From an uncultured archaeon (GTDB lineage: Archaea; Iainarchaeota; Iainarchaeia; Iainarchaeales; Iainarchaeaceae), in contig CAYJWI010000001.1 of NCBI GenBank assembly GCA_964373815.1, positions 7,885 to 71,884 on the forward strand: 64,000 bases of DNA, in the 5' to 3' direction. The notes beneath the pieces were generated by a model. The model saw nothing but the letters and a program-made list of their open reading frames with translations, ran no database searches and was not told the DNA's origin. The translations under genes and the position numbers were made by a program. This document shows positions 31-56,281 of this stretch, one piece after another (the stretch's first letter is position 1; each line of letters begins with the position of its first letter).

Positions 31-1716
31 TTACTTCAAATAGTCGATGTTAAGGCCAAGAGTTTCCTTCAGTTCACGCAGCTGCTTTGCGGCTCTCTGT
101 ATGTTCGCGTTCCTGCTGTTTTTCACTATGAATTCGGTGTAACCTGTCGAGGCGTCGCTGTTTATCTTGCATATCGCGGTTTCGAGGTTGAAGCCGTTCC
201 TGTGCATTATCCTGCACTGCTCATAGAGCAGCCCTGACCTGTCCATACTGTCAATCCTGAATTTCACAAGGCCTAGGTTCCCGTTGTGCTTCCCGTACTC
301 CTTGAGGCTTTTTTCCACGTTCCTCCTCGCCTTTTCCGAGTACGCGAGCGAGAGCCAGCTCGTGTTCACCTGCTTGTGGTCCGAGTAAATTATTTTCACC
401 CTGTCGCCGGAATTGATCTTCGTCCAGAGGGGGAGGATTTTCCCGTTTATTTCCGCCTTGAACGCCCTTTCCGCCTTCTTCCCGTCCTTGAAAAACGCGA
501 AGTCGATTGCGGTTGACTCCGGTGGGAGCTCTATTACCTCTCCCTTGTCCGTGAACACTATCATCGTCCTGTTGTGGAAATCGAGGTTGAGCGTGCCTGC
601 AAGCTCCTCGCTGTCCGTAACTTCTGGCCTGCTTAGCTTCGAAAACATTTTTTCGAACCTTTTGAGCTGCGGGTTCTTGGCTTTTTTCCGGAGGAGCGCA
701 ACAACGCCTTCCCTGCCTATCTCATCCATTTCGCGGGAGAAAATGTATACCTTGAGCGGCTTCTTCGACGGCCCTATTACCTGGGTGTGCAGGGACTGGT
801 ATATGGCGTATTCCGGAATCGCGATGAGGTCCTTCATTTTTTTCGGCAGCGGCTTGAAAGCGGAGTGTATTTTCCCGAGGGCAGAGTAGCAGTCCTGTTC
901 CTGCGGGACTATTACCTTGAGTATCAGGGTGTCGTTGAGCTCGCTGAGCTCTTTGCTATTGACAAGCATCTTGCTGTGCACGGAATAAAACGATTTTCTC
1001 TTGCTGGAAAATTCCCAGTCCATTTCCGGGTGCTTCTTCTTCAGGATCTGGATTGCCTTCTTGAGGTCCGCCTCCTTCCTTTTCCTGTTTTTCTCTATTT
1101 CCTTCTTGAGCTTCTTGAATTTTTTCGGCTCGAGGGAGCTGAAGCAGAGGTCCTCCATTTCATACTTGAGGCCGTGCATGCCGAGCTTGTGCGTGAGCGG
1201 CACGTAAACCACGAGGGCATCGGCTGCGATTCTCATCTGCTTTTCCCTCGGGAGGTGCCTTAGGGTCCTCAGGTTGTGGAGCTTGTCGAAAAGCTTTATT
1301 ATCAGCACGCGCAAATCCTTCGAGGACGCCATTATTGTCTTGATTATGTTAGCGGTCGACTGCTCCTTCCTTGACCTGAAAGCCTCCCTGTCAAGGTTCG
1401 TCAGGCCTTCCACAAGGCCGTAAATTTCGGGGCCGAATTTCTCCCGAAGCTCCGCCCTGCTGATTTTGGTGTCCTCGATTATGTCATGGAGCAGCGCAGC
1501 CGAGACAATGACTTCGTCAAGGCCCCTATCGGCAAGCATTTTTGCAACCGCAAGAGGATGTATGAAGTAAGGCTCCCCGGATTCCCTGAACTGGCCTTCG
1601 TGCCACTTCCTCGAAAGCGCCGCCGCCTCATCGATGAGCCTTATGTCGGCCTTCGGGTGGCTTGCCTTCAAGGCAGATTTGAGTGCCGTAAGTTCCCTGC
1701 CGAAGCCGTTCTTCAT
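31..1716 (-). CDS. long RelA/SpoT homologue (HD hydrolase, synthetase-like region, TGS, ACT)
   Basis: 561-aa ORF. HD motifs HPLAVAKML..LLHDIIEDT and RVLIIKLFDKLHNLRTL. Synthetase-region motifs KRKSFYSVHSKM and YQSLHT. TGS-like VFTDKGEVIELPPESTAIDFAF. ACT-like C-terminus FRIDSMDRSGLL. Confidence 0.8.
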   Translation of the reverse strand: MKNGFGRELTALKSALKASHPKADIRLIDEAAALSRKWHEGQFRESGEPYFIHPLAVAKMLADRGLDEVIVSAALLHDIIEDTKISRAELREKFGPEIYGLVEGLTNLDREAFRSRKEQSTANIIKTIMASSKDLRVLIIKLFDKLHNLRTLRHLPREKQMRIAADALVVYVPLTHKLGMHGLKYEMEDLCFSSLEPKKFKKLKKEIEKNRKRKEADLKKAIQILKKKHPEMDWEFSSKRKSFYSVHSKMLVNSKELSELNDTLILKVIVPQEQDCYSALGKIHSAFKPLPKKMKDLIAIPEYAIYQSLHTQVIGPSKKPLKVYIFSREMDEIGREGVVALLRKKAKNPQLKRFEKMFSKLSRPEVTDSEELAGTLNLDFHNRTMIVFTDKGEVIELPPESTAIDFAFFKDGKKAERAFKAEINGKILPLWTKINSGDRVKIIYSDHKQVNTSWLSLAYSEKARRNVEKSLKEYGKHNGNLGLVKFRIDSMDRSGLLYEQCRIMHRNGFNLETAICKINSDASTGYTEFIVKNSRNANIQRAAKQLRELKETLGLNIDYLK

Positions 1717-1996
1717 GTCAAATTATTTCCACGAAACTGGTTTTAAATGGTAATTCTGGGCGCATCTTATTAGGTGCCGAATCTGCGTCTAATATCGCCA
1801 AGAGGATGTGGCAGCTCCCACACTTCGGAACACTTTTTGTGTATGCGTGAGCCTTCCGCCAGGTTTCTTTAGCATGGCCCGCTCAAATTGCTTTTTCACT
1901 TTTTTCTTGAGCCTTGGCCCGGTACGCCTCATAATCCCACTTCCTGCAACAAGTAAGTTTTTGGTGTTAATAAATGTTTTGTGCGAAAAGTGCAGG

Positions 1997-3697
1997 CTAC
2001 ATTTCCATTACAAGCTCGATGTTTAGCAGTTGCGCGCCTTTGGCTATGGTTTGCACAACGGCCTTCACGAGCGCAAGCCTCGCTTCGGCGAGGCCCTTTT
2101 CCGCCTGCAGCACCGGCACTTCATGGTAAAACGAGTTGAATGCCGAAGAGAGCCCGAGGAGGTAGTGCGCTATTTTGTGCGGGCTGTTAGAATCACGCGC
2201 CTCGCGGGCCTTTGCATCAAAGCCTGAAATTAGCGAGACAAGCTCCCTCTCCTTTTGGTGCGAGAGCGGGTATTGCTTTGGTTTGCCGATTCTTCCAGCC
2301 TTGCGAAGGATGCTCTGGCCCCTTGCATAGCTGTAGAGCACGAACGGCCCGGTTTCGCCCTCGAGGCTCGTGGCTTTCTCCCAGTTGAACACAATTACTT
2401 TGTTCCTGTCCTGGGCAAGCATCCCGAACTTTATCGCCGCGAGCGATATTTTTTTCGCGGTCTTGGTGAGTTTCTTTTCATTCCATTCCGCGTGCCTCTG
2501 CCTTGTCTCTGCAAGCGTTTTTGCAAAAACGGTGTCGAAAACCTCAGTGTAAGTTACGACATTCCCCTCGCGCGAGCTCATTTTCCCGTCCTCGAGCCTT
2601 ACGAGCTCGTAAATTATGTGCTCTGTTTCGCAGTACTCCGGCTTTCGCGCGTTTAGCAGCTCGATGGTCTTTATGAGCTGCCTGAAATAAAAATTCTGCT
2701 CCGAACCCACAACGTTGTAGGACTTCTCCGCCTTGAAATGCTTTTTCTTCATTTTCGCAAGGGCGAGGTCCTTTGAGGAATAAAGCGCGGCGCCGTCGCT
2801 TTTGAGTATCAGGAATTTCTCGAGGTTGAATTGCGTGAGGTCTACCAGTACGGCCCCCTGGTCTTTTACCGCAAAGCCTTCCTTGAGGAGTTCGTTTGCA
2901 ATCCGGATCCCTTCCTTTTCCACTTCGCTCTCGAGAATGATGTGGTCGAATTTCACGTTGAGTTCGCCAAAAATCCTCTTGAAGCACTGGACGCTGATTT
3001 TTCGCAGGTGCTTCCAGTCCTCCTTGAGCTGCCTGTCAGAGCCATTCTCGAGCGCCACCACCATTCCCCGCATTTTTTCCTCGAGGGATTTGTCTTCCTG
3101 CACTTTTTTTGCCCCCATCGCGTAAAGCTCCCCGAGCCACTTCCCCTTCTCCTTTATGTCTTTAGGCTCCTGTGCGTGCCCGAGGTTCCTGTAAGCATAA
3201 ATGGTTTTGCTGACGTGCGGCCCTACATCGCCCCCATAATCCACCCTTATGACATTTGTGCCGGATTCTTCGAGGATGCGGGCTATGCTCTCGCCGAGGC
3301 AGATGTTGCGCAAATGCCCGATGTGGAAAGCTTTCATCGGGTTTGCCTGGCAATATTCCACTATGGCTTTGCCTTGCTTGCCCTTCCCTTTCGCCTTTTT
3401 TTTCGGGGTGAGGGCGCCTTCAATAGCCTCTTTTGCGAATGAATCCTGCGCCGCGAAAAAGTTCACGTAAGGGCCTTTAGCTTCGGCCTTCGAGAATGAT
3501 TTCGGGAGAACAATTTTTCCCGCGAGCTCTTGCGCTATCTGCACGGGGCTCTTTTTCATCTGCGCCGCGAGCTTGAAGCAGGGGAGCGCGAAGTCGCCCA
3601 TTTCACGATTGGCCGGCACCTCGAGCAGCTGCTCTGCGAGCCCTTCATTTACACCCGCTTTTGCGATCGCTTTCACGAGCTCTTTTCTGAAGTCCAT
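1997..3697 (-). CDS. argS: arginine--tRNA ligase
   Basis: 566-aa ORF with class I signatures HIGHLRN and KMSSREGN. Confidence 0.9.
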   Translation of the reverse strand: MDFRKELVKAIAKAGVNEGLAEQLLEVPANREMGDFALPCFKLAAQMKKSPVQIAQELAGKIVLPKSFSKAEAKGPYVNFFAAQDSFAKEAIEGALTPKKKAKGKGKQGKAIVEYCQANPMKAFHIGHLRNICLGESIARILEESGTNVIRVDYGGDVGPHVSKTIYAYRNLGHAQEPKDIKEKGKWLGELYAMGAKKVQEDKSLEEKMRGMVVALENGSDRQLKEDWKHLRKISVQCFKRIFGELNVKFDHIILESEVEKEGIRIANELLKEGFAVKDQGAVLVDLTQFNLEKFLILKSDGAALYSSKDLALAKMKKKHFKAEKSYNVVGSEQNFYFRQLIKTIELLNARKPEYCETEHIIYELVRLEDGKMSSREGNVVTYTEVFDTVFAKTLAETRQRHAEWNEKKLTKTAKKISLAAIKFGMLAQDRNKVIVFNWEKATSLEGETGPFVLYSYARGQSILRKAGRIGKPKQYPLSHQKERELVSLISGFDAKAREARDSNSPHKIAHYLLGLSSAFNSFYHEVPVLQAEKGLAEARLALVKAVVQTIAKGAQLLNIELVMEM

Positions 3698-3734: not shown

Positions 3735-3986
3735 TCAATCGTAGACGTGTCCTCTGTCGTCAATCCATGCAAACTTGATTTTCTGGGTGTTGAATGTATA
3801 GATTATCCTTCGATTTTCAACTCTTTCGCTCCTGAATGATTGAAGCGGCTTGTGCAATGGTTTTCCGAGTTCAGGATTTTTCACTATCTTTAATATCTTT
3901 TTTTTGATTAACTCCCTAGTCCTCTGGTCAAGTTTTTTGTACTGTTTTTCGAATTTCGCGGAATAAAAATAAGGGAGTATCATCAC
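3735..3986 (-). CDS. RelE/ParE-family type II toxin
   Basis: 83-aa ORF. FEKQYKKL..IKKKILKIVKNPELGKPL..RSERVENRRIIYTF matches the RelE/ParE pattern. It overlaps the upstream small ORF by 4 nt. Confidence 0.65.
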   Translation of the reverse strand: MMILPYFYSAKFEKQYKKLDQRTRELIKKKILKIVKNPELGKPLHKPLQSFRSERVENRRIIYTFNTQKIKFAWIDDRGHVYD

Positions 3987-4192
3987 TTATCGAGCTCTGC
4001 AAGCATTTTTTTGACGGAGGAAAACTTTTTTGTTTTTCCTGCCTTCAATTCTTCTATCGCTTCCCAGAACTCTGGATTGCTGAACATTTCAAGGTCCTCA
4101 AGGTATTCCCTGAAATCCTTTTTGAGCCTGGAAGCCTCTGCCCGCAGTTGCTTTATTGCCGTTTTTTGAATCACTTGTACTCCATTAGCCAT
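3983..4192 (-). CDS. putative cognate antitoxin
   Basis: 69-aa acidic, helical ORF directly upstream of and overlapping the RelE-like gene. The call rests on position only. Confidence 0.45.
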   Translation of the reverse strand: MANGVQVIQKTAIKQLRAEASRLKKDFREYLEDLEMFSNPEFWEAIEELKAGKTKKFSSVKKMLAELDK

Positions 4193-4297: not shown

Positions 4298-4407
4298 CGG
4301 ACCCGGGGGGATTTGAACCCCCGACCACCTGCTAGCTTCCCTTTTCCGCTAACCTTTTTGAAAAAGGCTAGAAGGCAGGTGCTCTATCCAAGCTGAGCTA
4401 CGGATCC
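4298..4407 (-). tRNA. tRNA-Arg(UCU) with a 35-nt intron after position 37
   Basis: The minus strand reads GGATCCG-TA-GCTC..GAGC-A-CCTGC-CTTCTA[intron]A-GCAGG-TGGTC-GGGGG-TTCAAAT-CCCCC-CGGGTCC-G. All four stems pair. Length is 110 nt, 75 nt mature. Confidence 0.8.
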
Positions 4408-46360: not shown

Positions 46361-47542
46361 ATGGCGAGGAAATATCTTTTCAGTTCGGAATCGGTTACGG
46401 AGGGGCACCCGGACAAGATGATGGACCAGATCGCCGACACGATATTGGACGAGATGATAAAGGGCGACCCAAATTCGAGGGTGGCTGTTGAATGTGCAAC
46501 CAAAACCGGGCTGATACTGGTGTTTGGCGAAGTGACCACCAAAACATACGTCGATATCCAGGCAACCGTGAGGAAAGTCATCAGGGAAATAGGCTACAAC
46601 AACCCATCATACGGCTTTGACTGCGACGCTTGCTCTGTTTTGATTTCACTTTCAGAGCAGAGCCCCGACATAGCCCAAGGTGTGAATGAGGGCTCCGGCC
46701 TTGACAAGGAGCAGGGCGCGGGGGACCAGGGGATGATGTTCGGCTATGCCACAGACGAAACCCCTGAACTGATGCCTCTGCCTATAATGCTCGCGCACAA
46801 GATTACGCAGCGCCTCGCGCAGGCGAGAAAGAGCAAGGAAATAACCTTCCTGCGCCCAGACGGCAAGAGCCAGGTGACGATTGAATATGTTGACGGAAAG
46901 CCCGTGAGGGCCGATACAATCGTCGTGAGCGCGCAGCACGATGACGTGCCGTACGAACAGGTACGCGAAGCGATAATAGAGAAAGTGGTAAAGCCTGTGT
47001 GCGGCAAATGGGTGGATGATAATACAAAATTCTTAATCAATCCCACTGGAAGGTTTGTAATCGGCGGGCCAGTGGGCGATTCAGGGCTTACCGGGAGAAA
47101 AATAATAGTAGACACTTACGGCGGAGTAGGCCATCACGGCGGGGGAGCGTTCTCCGGCAAAGACCCTTCAAAGGTCGACCGCTCTGCCGCATACTTCGCC
47201 CGCTATGTCGCAAAGAACATTGTTGCCGCGGGGCTTGCGCAGAGGTGCGAGATACAGGTCGCATACGCTATTGGGGTTTCGGAGCCTGTTTCAATTTTCG
47301 TGAACACCTATGGCACAGGAGAGCTGCCGGATGAAGCGCTCGAAGCCCTCGTGAAAAAAGTTTTCAACTTCAAGCCAGCGGCGATAATAAAGCACCTCAA
47401 CCTCAAGAGGCCGATTTACCGCAAGACCGCGGCCTACGGCCACTTCGGAAGGGATGATGCGGATTTCACTTGGGAGAAAACCGACATGGCAGAGGAGCTG
47501 AAGAAGGAAGCTTCGGGCTTGCTTGCAAAGGCGAGGAACTAG
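46361..47542 (+). CDS. metK: S-adenosylmethionine synthetase, bacterial/eukaryotic MetK type
   Basis: [30 protein letters not shown] and [19 protein letters not shown]. Confidence 0.9.
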
Positions 47543-53005: not shown

Positions 53006-56000
53006 CTATCTTGCCTCTTTCACTGCTTTTTCAAATTCAGAATCCATTTCCACAATTATTCCTTCAATGCCCTTTTCGGCATCCTTTTCCGCGAGCTCCT
53101 TCATCCTCGCTATCTTCTCGCGCACCTTGAGCGCGGTAACAGCCTTTAGCTGCACCCCGAGTTCGAGCGCATCAACCGCCTTGTCATAGAAGCGCAGTAT
53201 TGCCTTGAGCATCCTGTACTGCTTCTTTAGGGATGAGAAAGCGTCGATGTCGCTGAACGCTGACTGCTGCAGGAAATCCTCCCTTAACATCCTTGTGGCA
53301 TCGAGCACCATCTGCTCCTTTTCAGGGAGCGCATCAGGGCCTACTAGCTGCACGATTTCCTGCAGCTCCGCTTCCTTTTGCAAAAGCGCCATGGCCTTTC
53401 CCCGGTTATCCGCCCAATCGGGTGCAACGAGGTTCGCGTAAGTCGCATCCAGCGAATTCGTGTACAATGAGTATGACTTGAGCCAGTTGATTGCGGGGAA
53501 GTGCCTTCTCTGCGCGAGCTTGGCATCAAGCGCCCAGAACACCTTTGTTACGCGCAAGGTGTTCTGCGACACAGGCTCCGAAACATCCCCTCCGGGAGGC
53601 GAGACCGCCCCGATGACTGAAATCGAGCCGTTCCTTTCCGGTGAGCCCACACAAACAATTCTTCCCGCCCTTTCGTAGAACTCTGCGAGCCTTCTTGCAA
53701 GGTACGGCGGATACCCCTCTTCACCCGGCATCTCCTCAATCCTTCCCGAAATTTCCCTCATCGCTTCCGCCCACCTTGAAGTGGAATCCGCCATGAGCGC
53801 GACATCATAACCCATGTCCCTGTAGTATTCCGCAATCGTTATTCCTGTGTAAATGGACGCTTCCCTTGCAGCGACCGGCATGTTGGAGGTGTTCGCTATA
53901 AGCACGGTCCTCTGCATGAGCGGCTTTTTGGTCTTCGGGTCCACGAGTTCCGGGAATTCCGTCAGCACTTCGGTCATCTCGTTGCCCCGTTCGCCGCATC
54001 CGATGTAGACGATTATCTGCGAATCGCTGAATTTTGCGAGTGACTGCTGTGTCACAGTGTTGTGCAAAAGCATAGGCTGGTTGCCTGAAATAAAATTGTG
54101 TGTTTCTGGCACAGTGAGGTCGTAGACGTACTGTTCGGAATTTATTTCCCTGATTTGTGTTATTTTATCGCAGAATACGTCCTCTAATGACTGTGCAAAC
54201 TCATAGAGCCTTCCTTCAATTCCCAGCTTTTCCACTATTGACTGGAATGTCGTGGAGGTTTGGTTGAGTTGCTTGTAGTATGCGATTGTGGATACTCCCT
54301 TTTTCTGCAGTTCCCACGGTTTGATTCCTTCAAGTATTTCCCTAAATAATTCTGGTGTCATGGGGACAATGTCTTTGGACGTATAATAATGCTTTTTCTC
54401 ATAATATGAATCGATTTTATTTGCCTCTTTTGGAGCAATAAAGATTCTGTAATATGTTCCTTTTGCGGTGTTTTTGACCGCGCAGGTGTGGAGTATTCCC
54501 ATTTTTGTGAGAACATATGAGAGGCCAGTCTGCATTTTATGTGATGCAGAAGTGATTTCCGCATCATTCTCACCGATATGGCCATCGCCCTTGATGTATG
54601 CTTTCAGGAAAGCTTTGCACACTGCGTTCGGTGATGTGAGGAGTTGTTTTGGCACTCTCACGTTTCTGGACTTCTTTATGAATGGGAAGCCCATTGAATT
54701 GAGGAATTTTGCCAAAGAAGCGTGGTTAACGCTCACGGCCCAAACGGTGTTTGCGTAGATTTCTTTTGAATCGAGGTTGAATATTTTTTTCAGGAGGAAA
54801 GAAACCCTTTTCCGAAGCTCCTTGTCATTGTTGTAGAATTCTACCACTTTTTTATCTTTTATGCTTCCTTCAGCCATTAGGAAGCCAAGGAATTCCGCAA
54901 GCTCCTCATCTAGGTATTTTGGGAGGCTGATTGGCTTTGATTGCCTTTGGGCCTTGATTTCGCTGAATTCAATTTCCACCCCACTTAGTGTCATTAGGCT
55001 TTTCAGAAAACTTAGGGTTGGTTTGTTGGTTTCGGAGTAAAATGCTGACATTGTATGCTTTGGAACCCCTAAAAGTATTCCAAGTTCTTTTCTATCCATG
55101 CCCCTTTTACTGCATTCTTGGTCTATTACCGATTTCATCTTTTTTAGGGCTTTGGCATCAGTTATCCTGCAGTCAAAGTCCACGGCCAATTTTTGGGTTT
55201 CCCCACTGAACGGGATTTTTCTTGGAGATATTATATAGTCGCCTTCCCTTAATTCCTGTGAAGGCGTTTCTTCTATCCCAAGCTTCTCGTTTATCCTAAA
55301 TAACTTGTGCACTGGTGTTACTTGCACTTTTCTCCCGCTGCGGGTCTTCACTTCAATCATTTTGTCTGTCTTTCCCCTGTAAAGTGTTGTGGCAAGCGTA
55401 TCGGTTATTTCTTTGCCATTAAATGTATACACTTTTAGAGGCTCTTTTAGATTAATTATTGTTTCATAATTATTTTCTTCAATTGAATTGGCCTTATTAT
55501 CCTCCTCTGCTTGGAATATCTCCTGAATTGGCCTCAGTTCGTCATTTGCCAGCACAATTGTATTGCCGTCTATGCATTTCCCAGAACCAAATGGCCCTGG
55601 TATCGCCGCTGTCCCGCCTTTTGAAATCGGGAAGAACGTGTCAAGTATTCTCTGTCCCGTGATTAGCGGGGTATTTGGCGGGAATTTTTCGGCATAGGGC
55701 CTCGGTTTTCTAACTTCCCATCTCTGGAGCATCTGCACTTCGCGCTTTTCCCTGCCGTCCTTTATCACCGCAATTGTTTCCTCTATTGTGAAACTGCCCT
55801 TGCTTATTTCCATGACTTCCCCGGAAATTCCGTGCGGCACCATTATCTTGTGAAGTATAATGCCAGTTTCCTGGACTTCGCCGAGGATGTCGCCTCCAGC
55901 GACCTTCTCGCCCCTCTTCGCTTTCGGCGTGAATGCCCACTTCTTTTCCCTGCTAAGCGAATTCGCGACAACCCCGCGGGCGATGAAGCTTCCGCTCTTT

Positions 56001-56281
56001 GCCATTATTGCATCAAGCGGCCTTTGTATCCCATCATAAACCGATTCAAGCAATCCGGGCCCCAGTTCAACCGTGAGGGGAAGCCCCGTGTTCTCGACAG
56101 GCTGGCCTGGCTTTAGCCCTGATGTGTCCTCATAGACCTGGATGGTTGCTCTATCGCCATTTAGCTTGATTATTTCGCCGATAAGCTTCTCCTTTCCAAC
56201 CTTTACGACGTCATACATTTTCGCCCCCGCCATTTTCTCCCCAACAACTACGGGTCCGACTATTTTTTGCAATTCTCCCAT
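53006..56281 (-). CDS. atpA: A-type ATP synthase subunit A, intein-containing precursor
   Basis: 1091-aa ORF. The exteins (235 + 350 aa) reconstitute GPFGSGK|[37 protein letters not shown]. Confidence 0.9.
54059..55576 (-). mobile_element. 506-aa intein with LAGLIDADG homing endonuclease domain in the AtpA Walker A loop
   Basis: Begins CIDGNTIVL directly after GPFGSGK. Block B TPVH. LAGLIDADG motifs [14 protein letters not shown] and [13 protein letters not shown]. Ends [23 protein letters not shown], followed by the Thr +1 residue. Confidence 0.85.

Follow-up and report, generated by a model that had tools for sequence, protein, structure and literature searches.

A compact family of archaeal long RelA/SpoT homologs with a conserved hydrolase site and a predicted pseudo-synthetase domain

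In the genome of an uncultured archaeon of the Iainarchaeota (GenBank assembly GCA_964373815.1), a stretch of 64,000 nucleotides of contig CAYJWI010000001.1, in the following termed the window, carries near its beginning the gene of a long RelA/SpoT homolog (RSH). The encoded protein, P0001, is probably a ribosome-independent long RSH of the hydrolase-only [Hs] type, in which a domain with the synthetase fold would serve as a regulatory pseudo-synthetase. The residue states at both sites, the protein family, its phylogenetic separation and the synteny of the gene are observed directly. Both long RSHs of the hydrolase-only type and the occurrence of RelA/SpoT genes among DPANN archaea have been published before, and P0001 is therefore not a new kind of system; what is new is a large family of archaeal long RSHs, predicted from sequence to be devoted to degradation only, together with its diagnostic signature, its four-domain build and its place beside argS.

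Catalytic sites

The gene and the parts of its product are located in the window as follows.

31..1716, minus strand: compact long RSH gene (protein P0001), from the listing of open reading frames (ORFs), with an ATG start, 561 amino acids (aa) and the stop codon at 31-33
1147..1644, minus strand: HD domain of the (p)ppGpp-hydrolase type, aa 25-190 (Pfam HD_4 at 31-180, 1e-36)
682..1134, minus strand: putative pseudo-synthetase (SYNTH-fold) domain, aa 195-345 (RelA_SpoT PF04607 at 240-346, 6e-19)
736..753, minus strand: KVYIFS block replacing EVQIRT, aa 322-327 (ungapped alignment to 6yxa)
565..681, minus strand: linker ("Core") from the pseudo-SYNTH to the TGS domain, aa 346-384 (two predicted helices, pLDDT 58-77)
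382..564, minus strand: TGS domain without the CCA-sensing His, aa 385-445 (Pfam TGS at 385-443, 7e-8)
34..270, minus strand: C-terminal ACT/RRM-like domain, aa 483-561 (sub-threshold ACT matches at 487-553 and the fold of the model)

The hydrolase site of P0001 possesses all eight catalytic residues, R44, H53, H77, D78, E81, D82, D144 and N148, and these are conserved across the family, which bears out the statement of a preliminary description of the gene that the HD/ED residues are intact. Y50, K141, K145, T151, L155, K159 and R162 are kept as well. For the comparison, 190 sequences were aligned, among them 66 short ones (460-635 aa; the compact family) and 112 long ones with the catalytic Glu of the synthetase site (Glu-type or E-type, at least 650 aa), nearly all of which are bacterial. 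R44, H53, H77, D78, E81, K141 and N148 are unchanged in 66/66 members of the compact family, D82, T151, Y50 and L155 are kept in 61-65 of the 66, K145 takes the place of an Arg in 59, and at positions 159 and 162, Lys and Arg, respectively, occur most often. The eight catalytic residues as a set are kept in all 66 short proteins, apart from a single conservative exchange of D82 to E. In SpoT of Acinetobacter baumannii (SpoTAb), mutagenesis has identified R45, Y51, E82, D83 and N147 as essential for hydrolysis (PMC9974481). The residues for hydrolysis and ppGpp binding in SpoTAb would correspond to R44, Y50, E81, D82, N148, K141, K145, T151, L155, K159 and R162 of P0001, and judged from the alignment, the guanine- and phosphate-contact residues of SpoTAb are conserved or conservatively replaced in the compact family.

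At the synthetase site, the earlier reading that the EVQIRT box is changed to KVYIFS with loss of the catalytic Glu is confirmed by the HMMER alignment of P0001 with Bacillus subtilis Rel (6yxa), in which there is no gap at the motif: the B. subtilis Rel stretch there is PLKVYIFSREMDEIGREGVVALLR, the motif stretch of the ungapped pairing is PLKVYIFSREMDEIGREGVVALL, and E324 of B. subtilis Rel is thus paired with K322, Q326 with Y324, R328 with F326, and T329 with S327. Also the usual GVAAHW, described as missing, is indeed replaced by GVVALL. YQSLHT, which had been called recognizable along with the G-loop, is present (Y306, H310), but the G-loop region is altered by the exchanges of K304 to E302 and N306 to A304. 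Further exchanges are R241 to K239, R269 to K267 and R295 to K293, and what is kept are K243, K251, D264, K297, Y308 and H312 (B. subtilis numbering). Six residues of the synthetase site are hence replaced (R241, R269, K304, N306, E324, Q326), and of the full catalytic set, which comprises R241, R269, D264, E324, Q326 and K304/N306/Y308, P0001 retains D264 and Y308. In B. subtilis Rel, E324 and D264 bind Mg2+, Q326 is the catalytic Gln, K304, N306 and Y308 position the acceptor, and R241 and R269 are the pair of Arg residues that stack on the adenine. Its E324V variant is the standard synthetase-inactive allele (PMC7098656), and the D264G variant is likewise inactive in synthesis (PMC7797070).

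These exchanges are a property of the family. In 28 close sequences, K322, Y324, D262, K241, K249, K293 and K295 are invariant, as are all catalytic residues of the HD domain. In the whole compact family, the position of E324 is a Lys in 63/66 and that of Q326 a Tyr in 56/66 sequences, with R241 and R269 being unconserved, whereas E324, Q326, R241 and R269 are canonical in 109-112 of the 112 long Glu-type RSHs. Over 15 positions of the synthetase site, the signature of the 66 short proteins is xKKDxKKxxYHKYxT, as opposed to RKKDRRKKNYHEQRT in the 112 long Glu-type proteins, with almost no exceptions. A catalytic Glu that is displaced but present, for which an alignment had been proposed as a check, is rejected, as the alignment is ungapped, no such Glu is available, and the same Lys/Tyr pair is found in all 28 close homologs.

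The mean pairwise identities within the compact family are 0.48 for the HD, 0.39 for the SYNTH, 0.42 for the TGS and 0.24 for the ACT domain, and within the long Glu-type set 0.52, 0.48, 0.56 and 0.23, respectively. With no variation at K322 and Y324 in the close clade, and with 39% identity across the family where the HD domain has 48%, the synthetase domain looks like a conserved pseudo-enzyme domain and not like an inactivated relic; judged from these values, it is somewhat relaxed, yet clearly under selection. The term "inactivated" used before is therefore appropriate as far as the loss of catalytic residues is concerned, but not in the sense of a decayed relic, since the domain is conserved family-wide. 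With six changed residues in the site and a change that is fixed throughout the family, the core of the preliminary description is stronger than it had been stated.

Domain architecture

The order HD, synthetase, TGS and ACT in only 561 aa, as originally proposed, is borne out by Pfam for the protein, and for the ACT domain by the structural model and Foldseek. P0001 was matched also in searches of NCBIfam and the PDB. With the NCBIfam profile spoT_relA (TIGR00691) it scores 435.6, with a cutoff of 499.2, and covers the first 454 of 687 profile positions. Among solved structures, the best HMMER match is to B. subtilis Rel (6yxa, 1e-97); the match to A. baumannii SpoT (7qpr) has 1e-48. An AlphaFold2 model of P0001, based on 37 sequences, has a mean pLDDT of 84 and a pTM of 0.69. 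Its N-terminal half superimposes on the N-terminal domain of Staphylococcus aureus Rel with pppGpp with a TM-score of 0.89 and a root-mean-square deviation of 2.8 Å, and its matches to Rel N-terminal domains have TM-scores of 0.8-0.9. Residues 483-560 of the model adopt a ferredoxin-like beta-alpha-beta-beta-alpha-beta fold that is matched by Foldseek to the ACT domains of PGDH and IlvN.

Like other long RSHs, P0001 has an HD domain with the HD...ED motif and a SYNTH-fold domain after it, but of the typical C-terminal order TGS, helical, zinc finger and ACT/RRM it has TGS and ACT only, and no helical or zinc-finger domain lies between them. The Pfam domains for the helical region (PF19296) and the zinc finger (PF28438, CCxPxPGD) are missing across the compact family, which corresponds to about 170 alignment columns of bacterial Rel that are missing in all members. 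The linker at aa 346-384 is the least conserved stretch of the P0001 family, with 20% identity.

Also the TGS domain is changed. In the motif DFAY-x-[IV]-H-[TS]-x-x-G, 110 of the 112 long Glu-type RSHs have the His, whereas in the compact family the position of B. subtilis H420 is D, N, S or Y, with D411 in P0001. This His (H432 in RelA, H420 in B. subtilis Rel) stacks on the CCA end of the tRNA and is required for activation by deacylated tRNA (PMC7797070).

Family and phylogeny

A word-indexed search found 27 clusters of homologs with 48-62% identity to P0001, all of 551-590 aa, and next below those come bacterial Rel proteins with about 39% identity. When 1.84 billion representatives were searched with a HMMER profile, about 35 further divergent clusters of 460-635 aa came to light. 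Wherever the organism name of a compact-family entry is fully printed, it is "Candidatus Diapherotrites archaeon", "archaeon" or "uncultured archaeon". Some of the entries are automatically annotated as "bifunctional (p)ppGpp synthetase/hydrolase" or "GTP pyrophosphokinase", names that can be corrected for this family. The identical P0001 protein is encoded on a separate Logan contig and in 4-5 metagenome runs; the carriers are DNA metagenomes only, and the gene was found in no RNA run.

A tree of 64 sequences was calculated with IQ-TREE (LG+C20 PMSF, 440 columns, motif columns removed, unrooted). The 36 short and 28 long E-type sequences are split in it by a single branch with a length of 0.33 and a support of 100/99, which is present in 100% of 200 bootstraps, and P0001 is nested in the compact family with the Lys (K-type) with 100/100 support. 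The compact family would thus have one origin, apart from that of the sampled long Glu-type RSHs. P0001 has all traits of the compact K-type family, which are a length of 460-635 aa, the order HD, pseudo-SYNTH, TGS and ACT, the signature xKKDxKKxxYHKYxT, a TGS domain without the His, and an adjacent argS. When two archaeal E-type families of about 640 aa are added, four groups result, each of them on one side of a branch and with an unresolved order, and the longest stem is that of the K-type family. Since the tree is unrooted, the direction of change, i.e. whether the family is derived from Rel, can be inferred only, and it is read here from the loss of domains. The family is probably old and vertically inherited in the Diapherotrites/Iainarchaeota, with P0001 being one member. 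A recent horizontal transfer of the gene is rejected in view of the long branch, the depth of the family and the conserved synteny.

Single sequences deviate from the pattern. P0190, a member of the compact family, has a Glu at the catalytic site, and the rest of its motif is degenerate. P0245, a bacterial-type full-length long RSH of 725 aa from another genome, has gained the Lys independently; its signature is RSKNRKQKNYHKQLT, and it nests in a bacterial clade.

Comparison with known RSH proteins

The characterized hydrolase-only long RSH is SpoT[Hs] of the Moraxellaceae member A. baumannii (PDB 7QPR; Tamman et al. 2022; PMC9974481). Its pseudo-SYNTH domain differs from Thermus thermophilus Rel at R249, R277, Y329, D272 and Q347, of which R249, R277 and Y329 coordinate adenosine and guanosine and D272 and Q347 are catalytic (PMC9974481). 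These positions would be equivalent to R241, R269, Y308, D264 and Q326 of B. subtilis Rel. By this correspondence, SpoTAb and P0001 appear alike in combining an HD domain of the active type with a conserved but dead SYNTH domain, as in both of them the two adenine-contacting Arg and the catalytic Gln are lost. SpoTAb is insensitive to the ribosome and to tRNA, uses its dead SYNTH domain for regulation and reuses its TGS domain as a scaffold (PMC9974481). In contrast to the P0001 family, however, it is about 700 aa long, still contains the helical and zinc-finger domains and no longer has D264 and Y308, while the archaeal family keeps these two residues, replaces in addition the Mg-binding Glu, and has, unlike SpoTAb, Lys and Tyr fixed at the E and Q sites. 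The P0001 family and the Moraxellaceae SpoT[Hs] arose independently. Also a descent from gammaproteobacterial SpoT does not fit, as P0001 is nearer to Rel (1e-97 versus 1e-48) and forms a clade of its own, in a tree without SpoT sequences.

The best matches, with 33-41% identity, are the bifunctional Rel[HS] proteins of Firmicutes and Actinobacteria (6YXA, Streptococcus equisimilis 1VJ7, S. aureus 7OIW). They share with P0001 the HD site and the order HD, SYNTH, TGS and ACT, but have the RKKDRRKKNYHEQRT signature, the TGS His, the helical and zinc-finger domains and an action on the ribosome, the sequence features of which P0001 lacks. Closer in taxonomic terms are the RSHs of Woesearchaeota and Nanoarchaeota, i.e. 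the families of P0067 and P0197 with about 640 aa, which are likewise from DPANN archaea, shortened and without a helical domain, and form their own clades. As the E/Q synthetase site, the TGS His and the zinc finger, all of which the K-type family is devoid of, are present in them, they are probably synthetase-competent, and they show no specific kinship to the K-type family in the tree. With P0280-P0398 and P0399-P0471, respectively, P0067 and P0197 make up two large archaeal families of long RSHs, and in the latter many sampled members show a RelA-like E-x-D where R-x-K would stand, and the HD motifs of a few are degenerate. Small alarmone hydrolases, including MESH1, have the HD fold and the catalytic motif in common with P0001, but unlike P0001 they consist of a single domain of about 180 aa, without SYNTH, TGS or ACT. 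They are restricted to hydrolysis, and often no synthetase is known from the organism that carries them (PMC3153485).

Archaea were found to have only small RSHs in the survey by Atkinson et al. 2011 (PMC3153485). The preliminary description called long RSHs rare in archaea, which does not apply to this lineage, as, according to Li et al. 2021, 69% of the Diapherotrites genomes contain RelA/SpoT, which they reported also from other DPANN phyla, inferring a bacterial origin without an analysis of domains or residues (PMC8407392). Full-text searches for DPANN or archaeal alarmone enzymes brought up no mention of a dead synthetase, of the compact architecture or of the linkage to argS. With its 561 aa, P0001 represents a small natural model for the control of an HD hydrolase by a pseudo-synthetase and an ACT domain without the ribosome, and it makes testable whether the Diapherotrites obtain alarmone from another enzyme or degrade a foreign or different nucleotide.

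Search for an alarmone synthetase

Signaling by (p)ppGpp is regarded as bacterial and plastidial, and the alarmone is not known to have been detected in any archaeon. Haloferax and Sulfolobus gave negative results when tested for (p)ppGpp (PMC8646023). The flanks of the compact-family loci examined contain no gene with a RelA_SpoT domain besides the RSH gene itself, and a six-frame scan with hidden Markov models over the window and 2.5 kb past its start (about 66 kb) found only the RSH gene, which is a weak negative. Searches for a synthetase-competent paralog in Iainarchaeota were seeded with P0067 and P0197, the two short E-type proteins nearest in the tree, and these searches led to the families of Woesearchaeota and Nanoarchaeota.

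Proposed mechanism and alternative explanations

From the features described above, we infer the catalytic activities, the regulatory role and the in vivo substrate of P0001. The protein would act off the ribosome, as a (p)ppGpp 3'-pyrophosphohydrolase whose activity is either constitutive or tuned by a ligand, and its HD domain, together with Mn2+, would cut the 3'-pyrophosphate off (p)ppGpp. The synthetase-fold domain would have lost the canonical binding of ATP and Mg2+ and would scaffold and tune the hydrolase, and as Y308, H312, K297 and D264 are retained, it may still bind a guanine nucleotide. Because the CCA-reading His of the TGS domain is lost and the helical and zinc-finger domains for ribosome docking are deleted, control is probably exerted through a small ligand of the ACT domain and through intramolecular packing, as in Acinetobacter SpoT. 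Pseudo-SYNTH, TGS and ACT would pack around the HD domain as in the "tau" state of SpoTAb (PMC9974481), and this packing model is consistent with the rise in hydrolysis that is seen when the zinc-finger domain and the RRM are removed from B. subtilis Rel (PMC7797070).

Several points weigh against this assignment. The tree is unrooted with the K-type family on a long branch, (p)ppGpp is a putative physiological substrate, and HD domains of the same superfamily can take other substrates, such as NADPH or 3'-phosphoadenosine 5'-phosphosulfate (PAPS), which are bound by MESH1 according to PDB titles. In addition, the pseudo-SYNTH domain possibly has an altered chemistry or a role in nucleotide binding, since D264, K243, K251, K297, Y308 and H312 have been retained and the Lys and Tyr do not drift but are fixed. 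The same retained residues and the fixed K322 and Y324 are what could be brought forward for a P0001 that is still bifunctional, with the Lys/Tyr pair serving a non-canonical and perhaps metal-independent pyrophosphoryl transfer, and some database entries name family members accordingly, though such names are automatic. This is nevertheless very unlikely, as both Arg residues that sandwich the adenine of ATP are lost together with K304 and N306 of the G-loop region, E324V alone already abolishes synthesis by B. subtilis Rel, and the catalytic Mg2+ cannot be coordinated by a Lys.

A small but real chance has to be given to an active HD domain whose natural substrate is another 2'/3'-phosphorylated nucleotide, with (p)ppApp, pGpp, NADPH and PAPS as candidates, or a 3'-pyrophosphorylated tRNA end, or a foreign alarmone from neighboring bacteria or a host. 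Apart from the MESH1 ligands, it speaks for such a substrate that (p)ppGpp went undetected in the archaea tested, that no synthetase is seen near the RSH gene in the 10 loci or within the window, that the linkage with argS, leuS and alaS is constant, and that the TGS domain is retained; on the other hand, the ppGpp contacts of SpoTAb are conserved or conservatively replaced, the TGS His that would read the CCA of a tRNA end is lost, and the adjacency of the genes may simply be inherited gene order. A related, bolder view, to which we assign a slim chance, is that of an archaeal module coupling the removal of pyrophosphate from nucleotides or tRNA ends to aminoacyl-tRNA synthesis, with the Lys/Tyr pocket as a nucleotide sensor. 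If this were true, an enzyme beside ArgRS, LeuRS and AlaRS would either clear alarmone that a partner or the environment supplies or repair tRNA with a 3'-pyrophosphorylated end, and the Diapherotrites would own an "orphan" alarmone-hydrolase pathway without bacterial counterpart. It is extremely unlikely that the gene is in decay, that it is a contamination of the bin from a bacterium, or that P0001 has no catalytic function at all: P0001 scores below the NCBIfam spoT_relA cutoff and its nearest characterized relatives are bacterial, but the ORF is intact and of full length, there are about 66 conserved clusters of homologs with invariant catalytic HD residues, the 80-kb contig carries an archaeal A-ATPase and a probable intron-bearing tRNA, and the same synteny is found in 10 independent assemblies. 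A pseudogene or a contamination is rejected on the grounds of the conserved homologs and the shared synteny.

Genomic context

Upstream of the RSH gene, two features were assigned.

1997..3697, minus strand: argS (arginyl-tRNA synthetase), directly upstream of the RSH gene (Pfam Arg_tRNA_synt_N, tRNA-synt_1d, DALR_1)
1742..1747, minus strand: TTTAAA, putative archaeal TATA box, read from the sequence, 26-31 nt upstream of the ATG

The argS gene adjoins the RSH gene in 10/10 loci of the compact family from independent assemblies, which speaks for a gene stably held in the chromosome. Nine of these loci lie beyond the window and include members with only about 37% identity; in seven of them, argS is directly upstream on the same strand, in locus L087 it is upstream with one small ORF of the opposite strand in between, and in locus L085 it is directly downstream. 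The next genes are leuS and/or alaS in most of the compact-family loci examined. For P0001, leuS lies just past the start of the window, convergent with the RSH gene, as can be seen on the Logan contig with the identical protein (L001:3378-5873). This leuS is of bacterial type, with 5e-211 to T. thermophilus LeuRS versus 3e-54 to Pyrococcus horikoshii LeuRS, and the RSH gene thus resides in a block with at least one other bacterial-derived translation gene.

The spacers between argS and the RSH gene have lengths of 37-280 nt, and that in the window is, with 280 nt, unusually long (37-170 nt in relatives). It contains on the minus strand, at 1789-1932, a very basic ORF of 47 aa (MRRTGPRLKKKVKKQFERAMLKKPGG...) that is not found in the spacers of relatives. 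An alignment of the argS-rsh spacers across relatives revealed no conserved element. The TTTAAA box 26-31 nt before the ATG may belong to a promoter of the RSH gene itself, with an almost leaderless transcript, and A/T-rich boxes occur at similar upstream distances in relatives.

Between argS and a tRNA gene, the window carries a toxin/antitoxin-like pair on the minus strand at 3735-4192, which consists of an ORF of 83 aa for a ParE/RelE-like toxin (ParE-like_toxin 5e-5, ParE_toxin 2e-4, both slightly under the cutoffs) and an upstream ORF of 69 aa that overlaps it by 4 nt and likely encodes the antitoxin; relatives carry FKBP and HIT genes upstream of argS. The tRNA gene, at 4298-4407 on the minus strand, is an Rfam match of 110 nt with 56 bits; it is probably an intron-containing archaeal tRNA, and the intron would explain why ARAGORN missed it. 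Further along, a gene for the catalytic subunit of an A/V-type ATPase (53006-56281, minus strand) is split by an intein with a LAGLIDADG endonuclease domain. The archaeal nature of the 80-kb contig is supported by this ATPase with its intein, the likely intron in the tRNA and the archaeon-named homologs. The window encodes also, at 46361-47542 on the plus strand, MetK, an S-adenosylmethionine synthetase of the bacterial/eukaryotic type with three Pfam domains.

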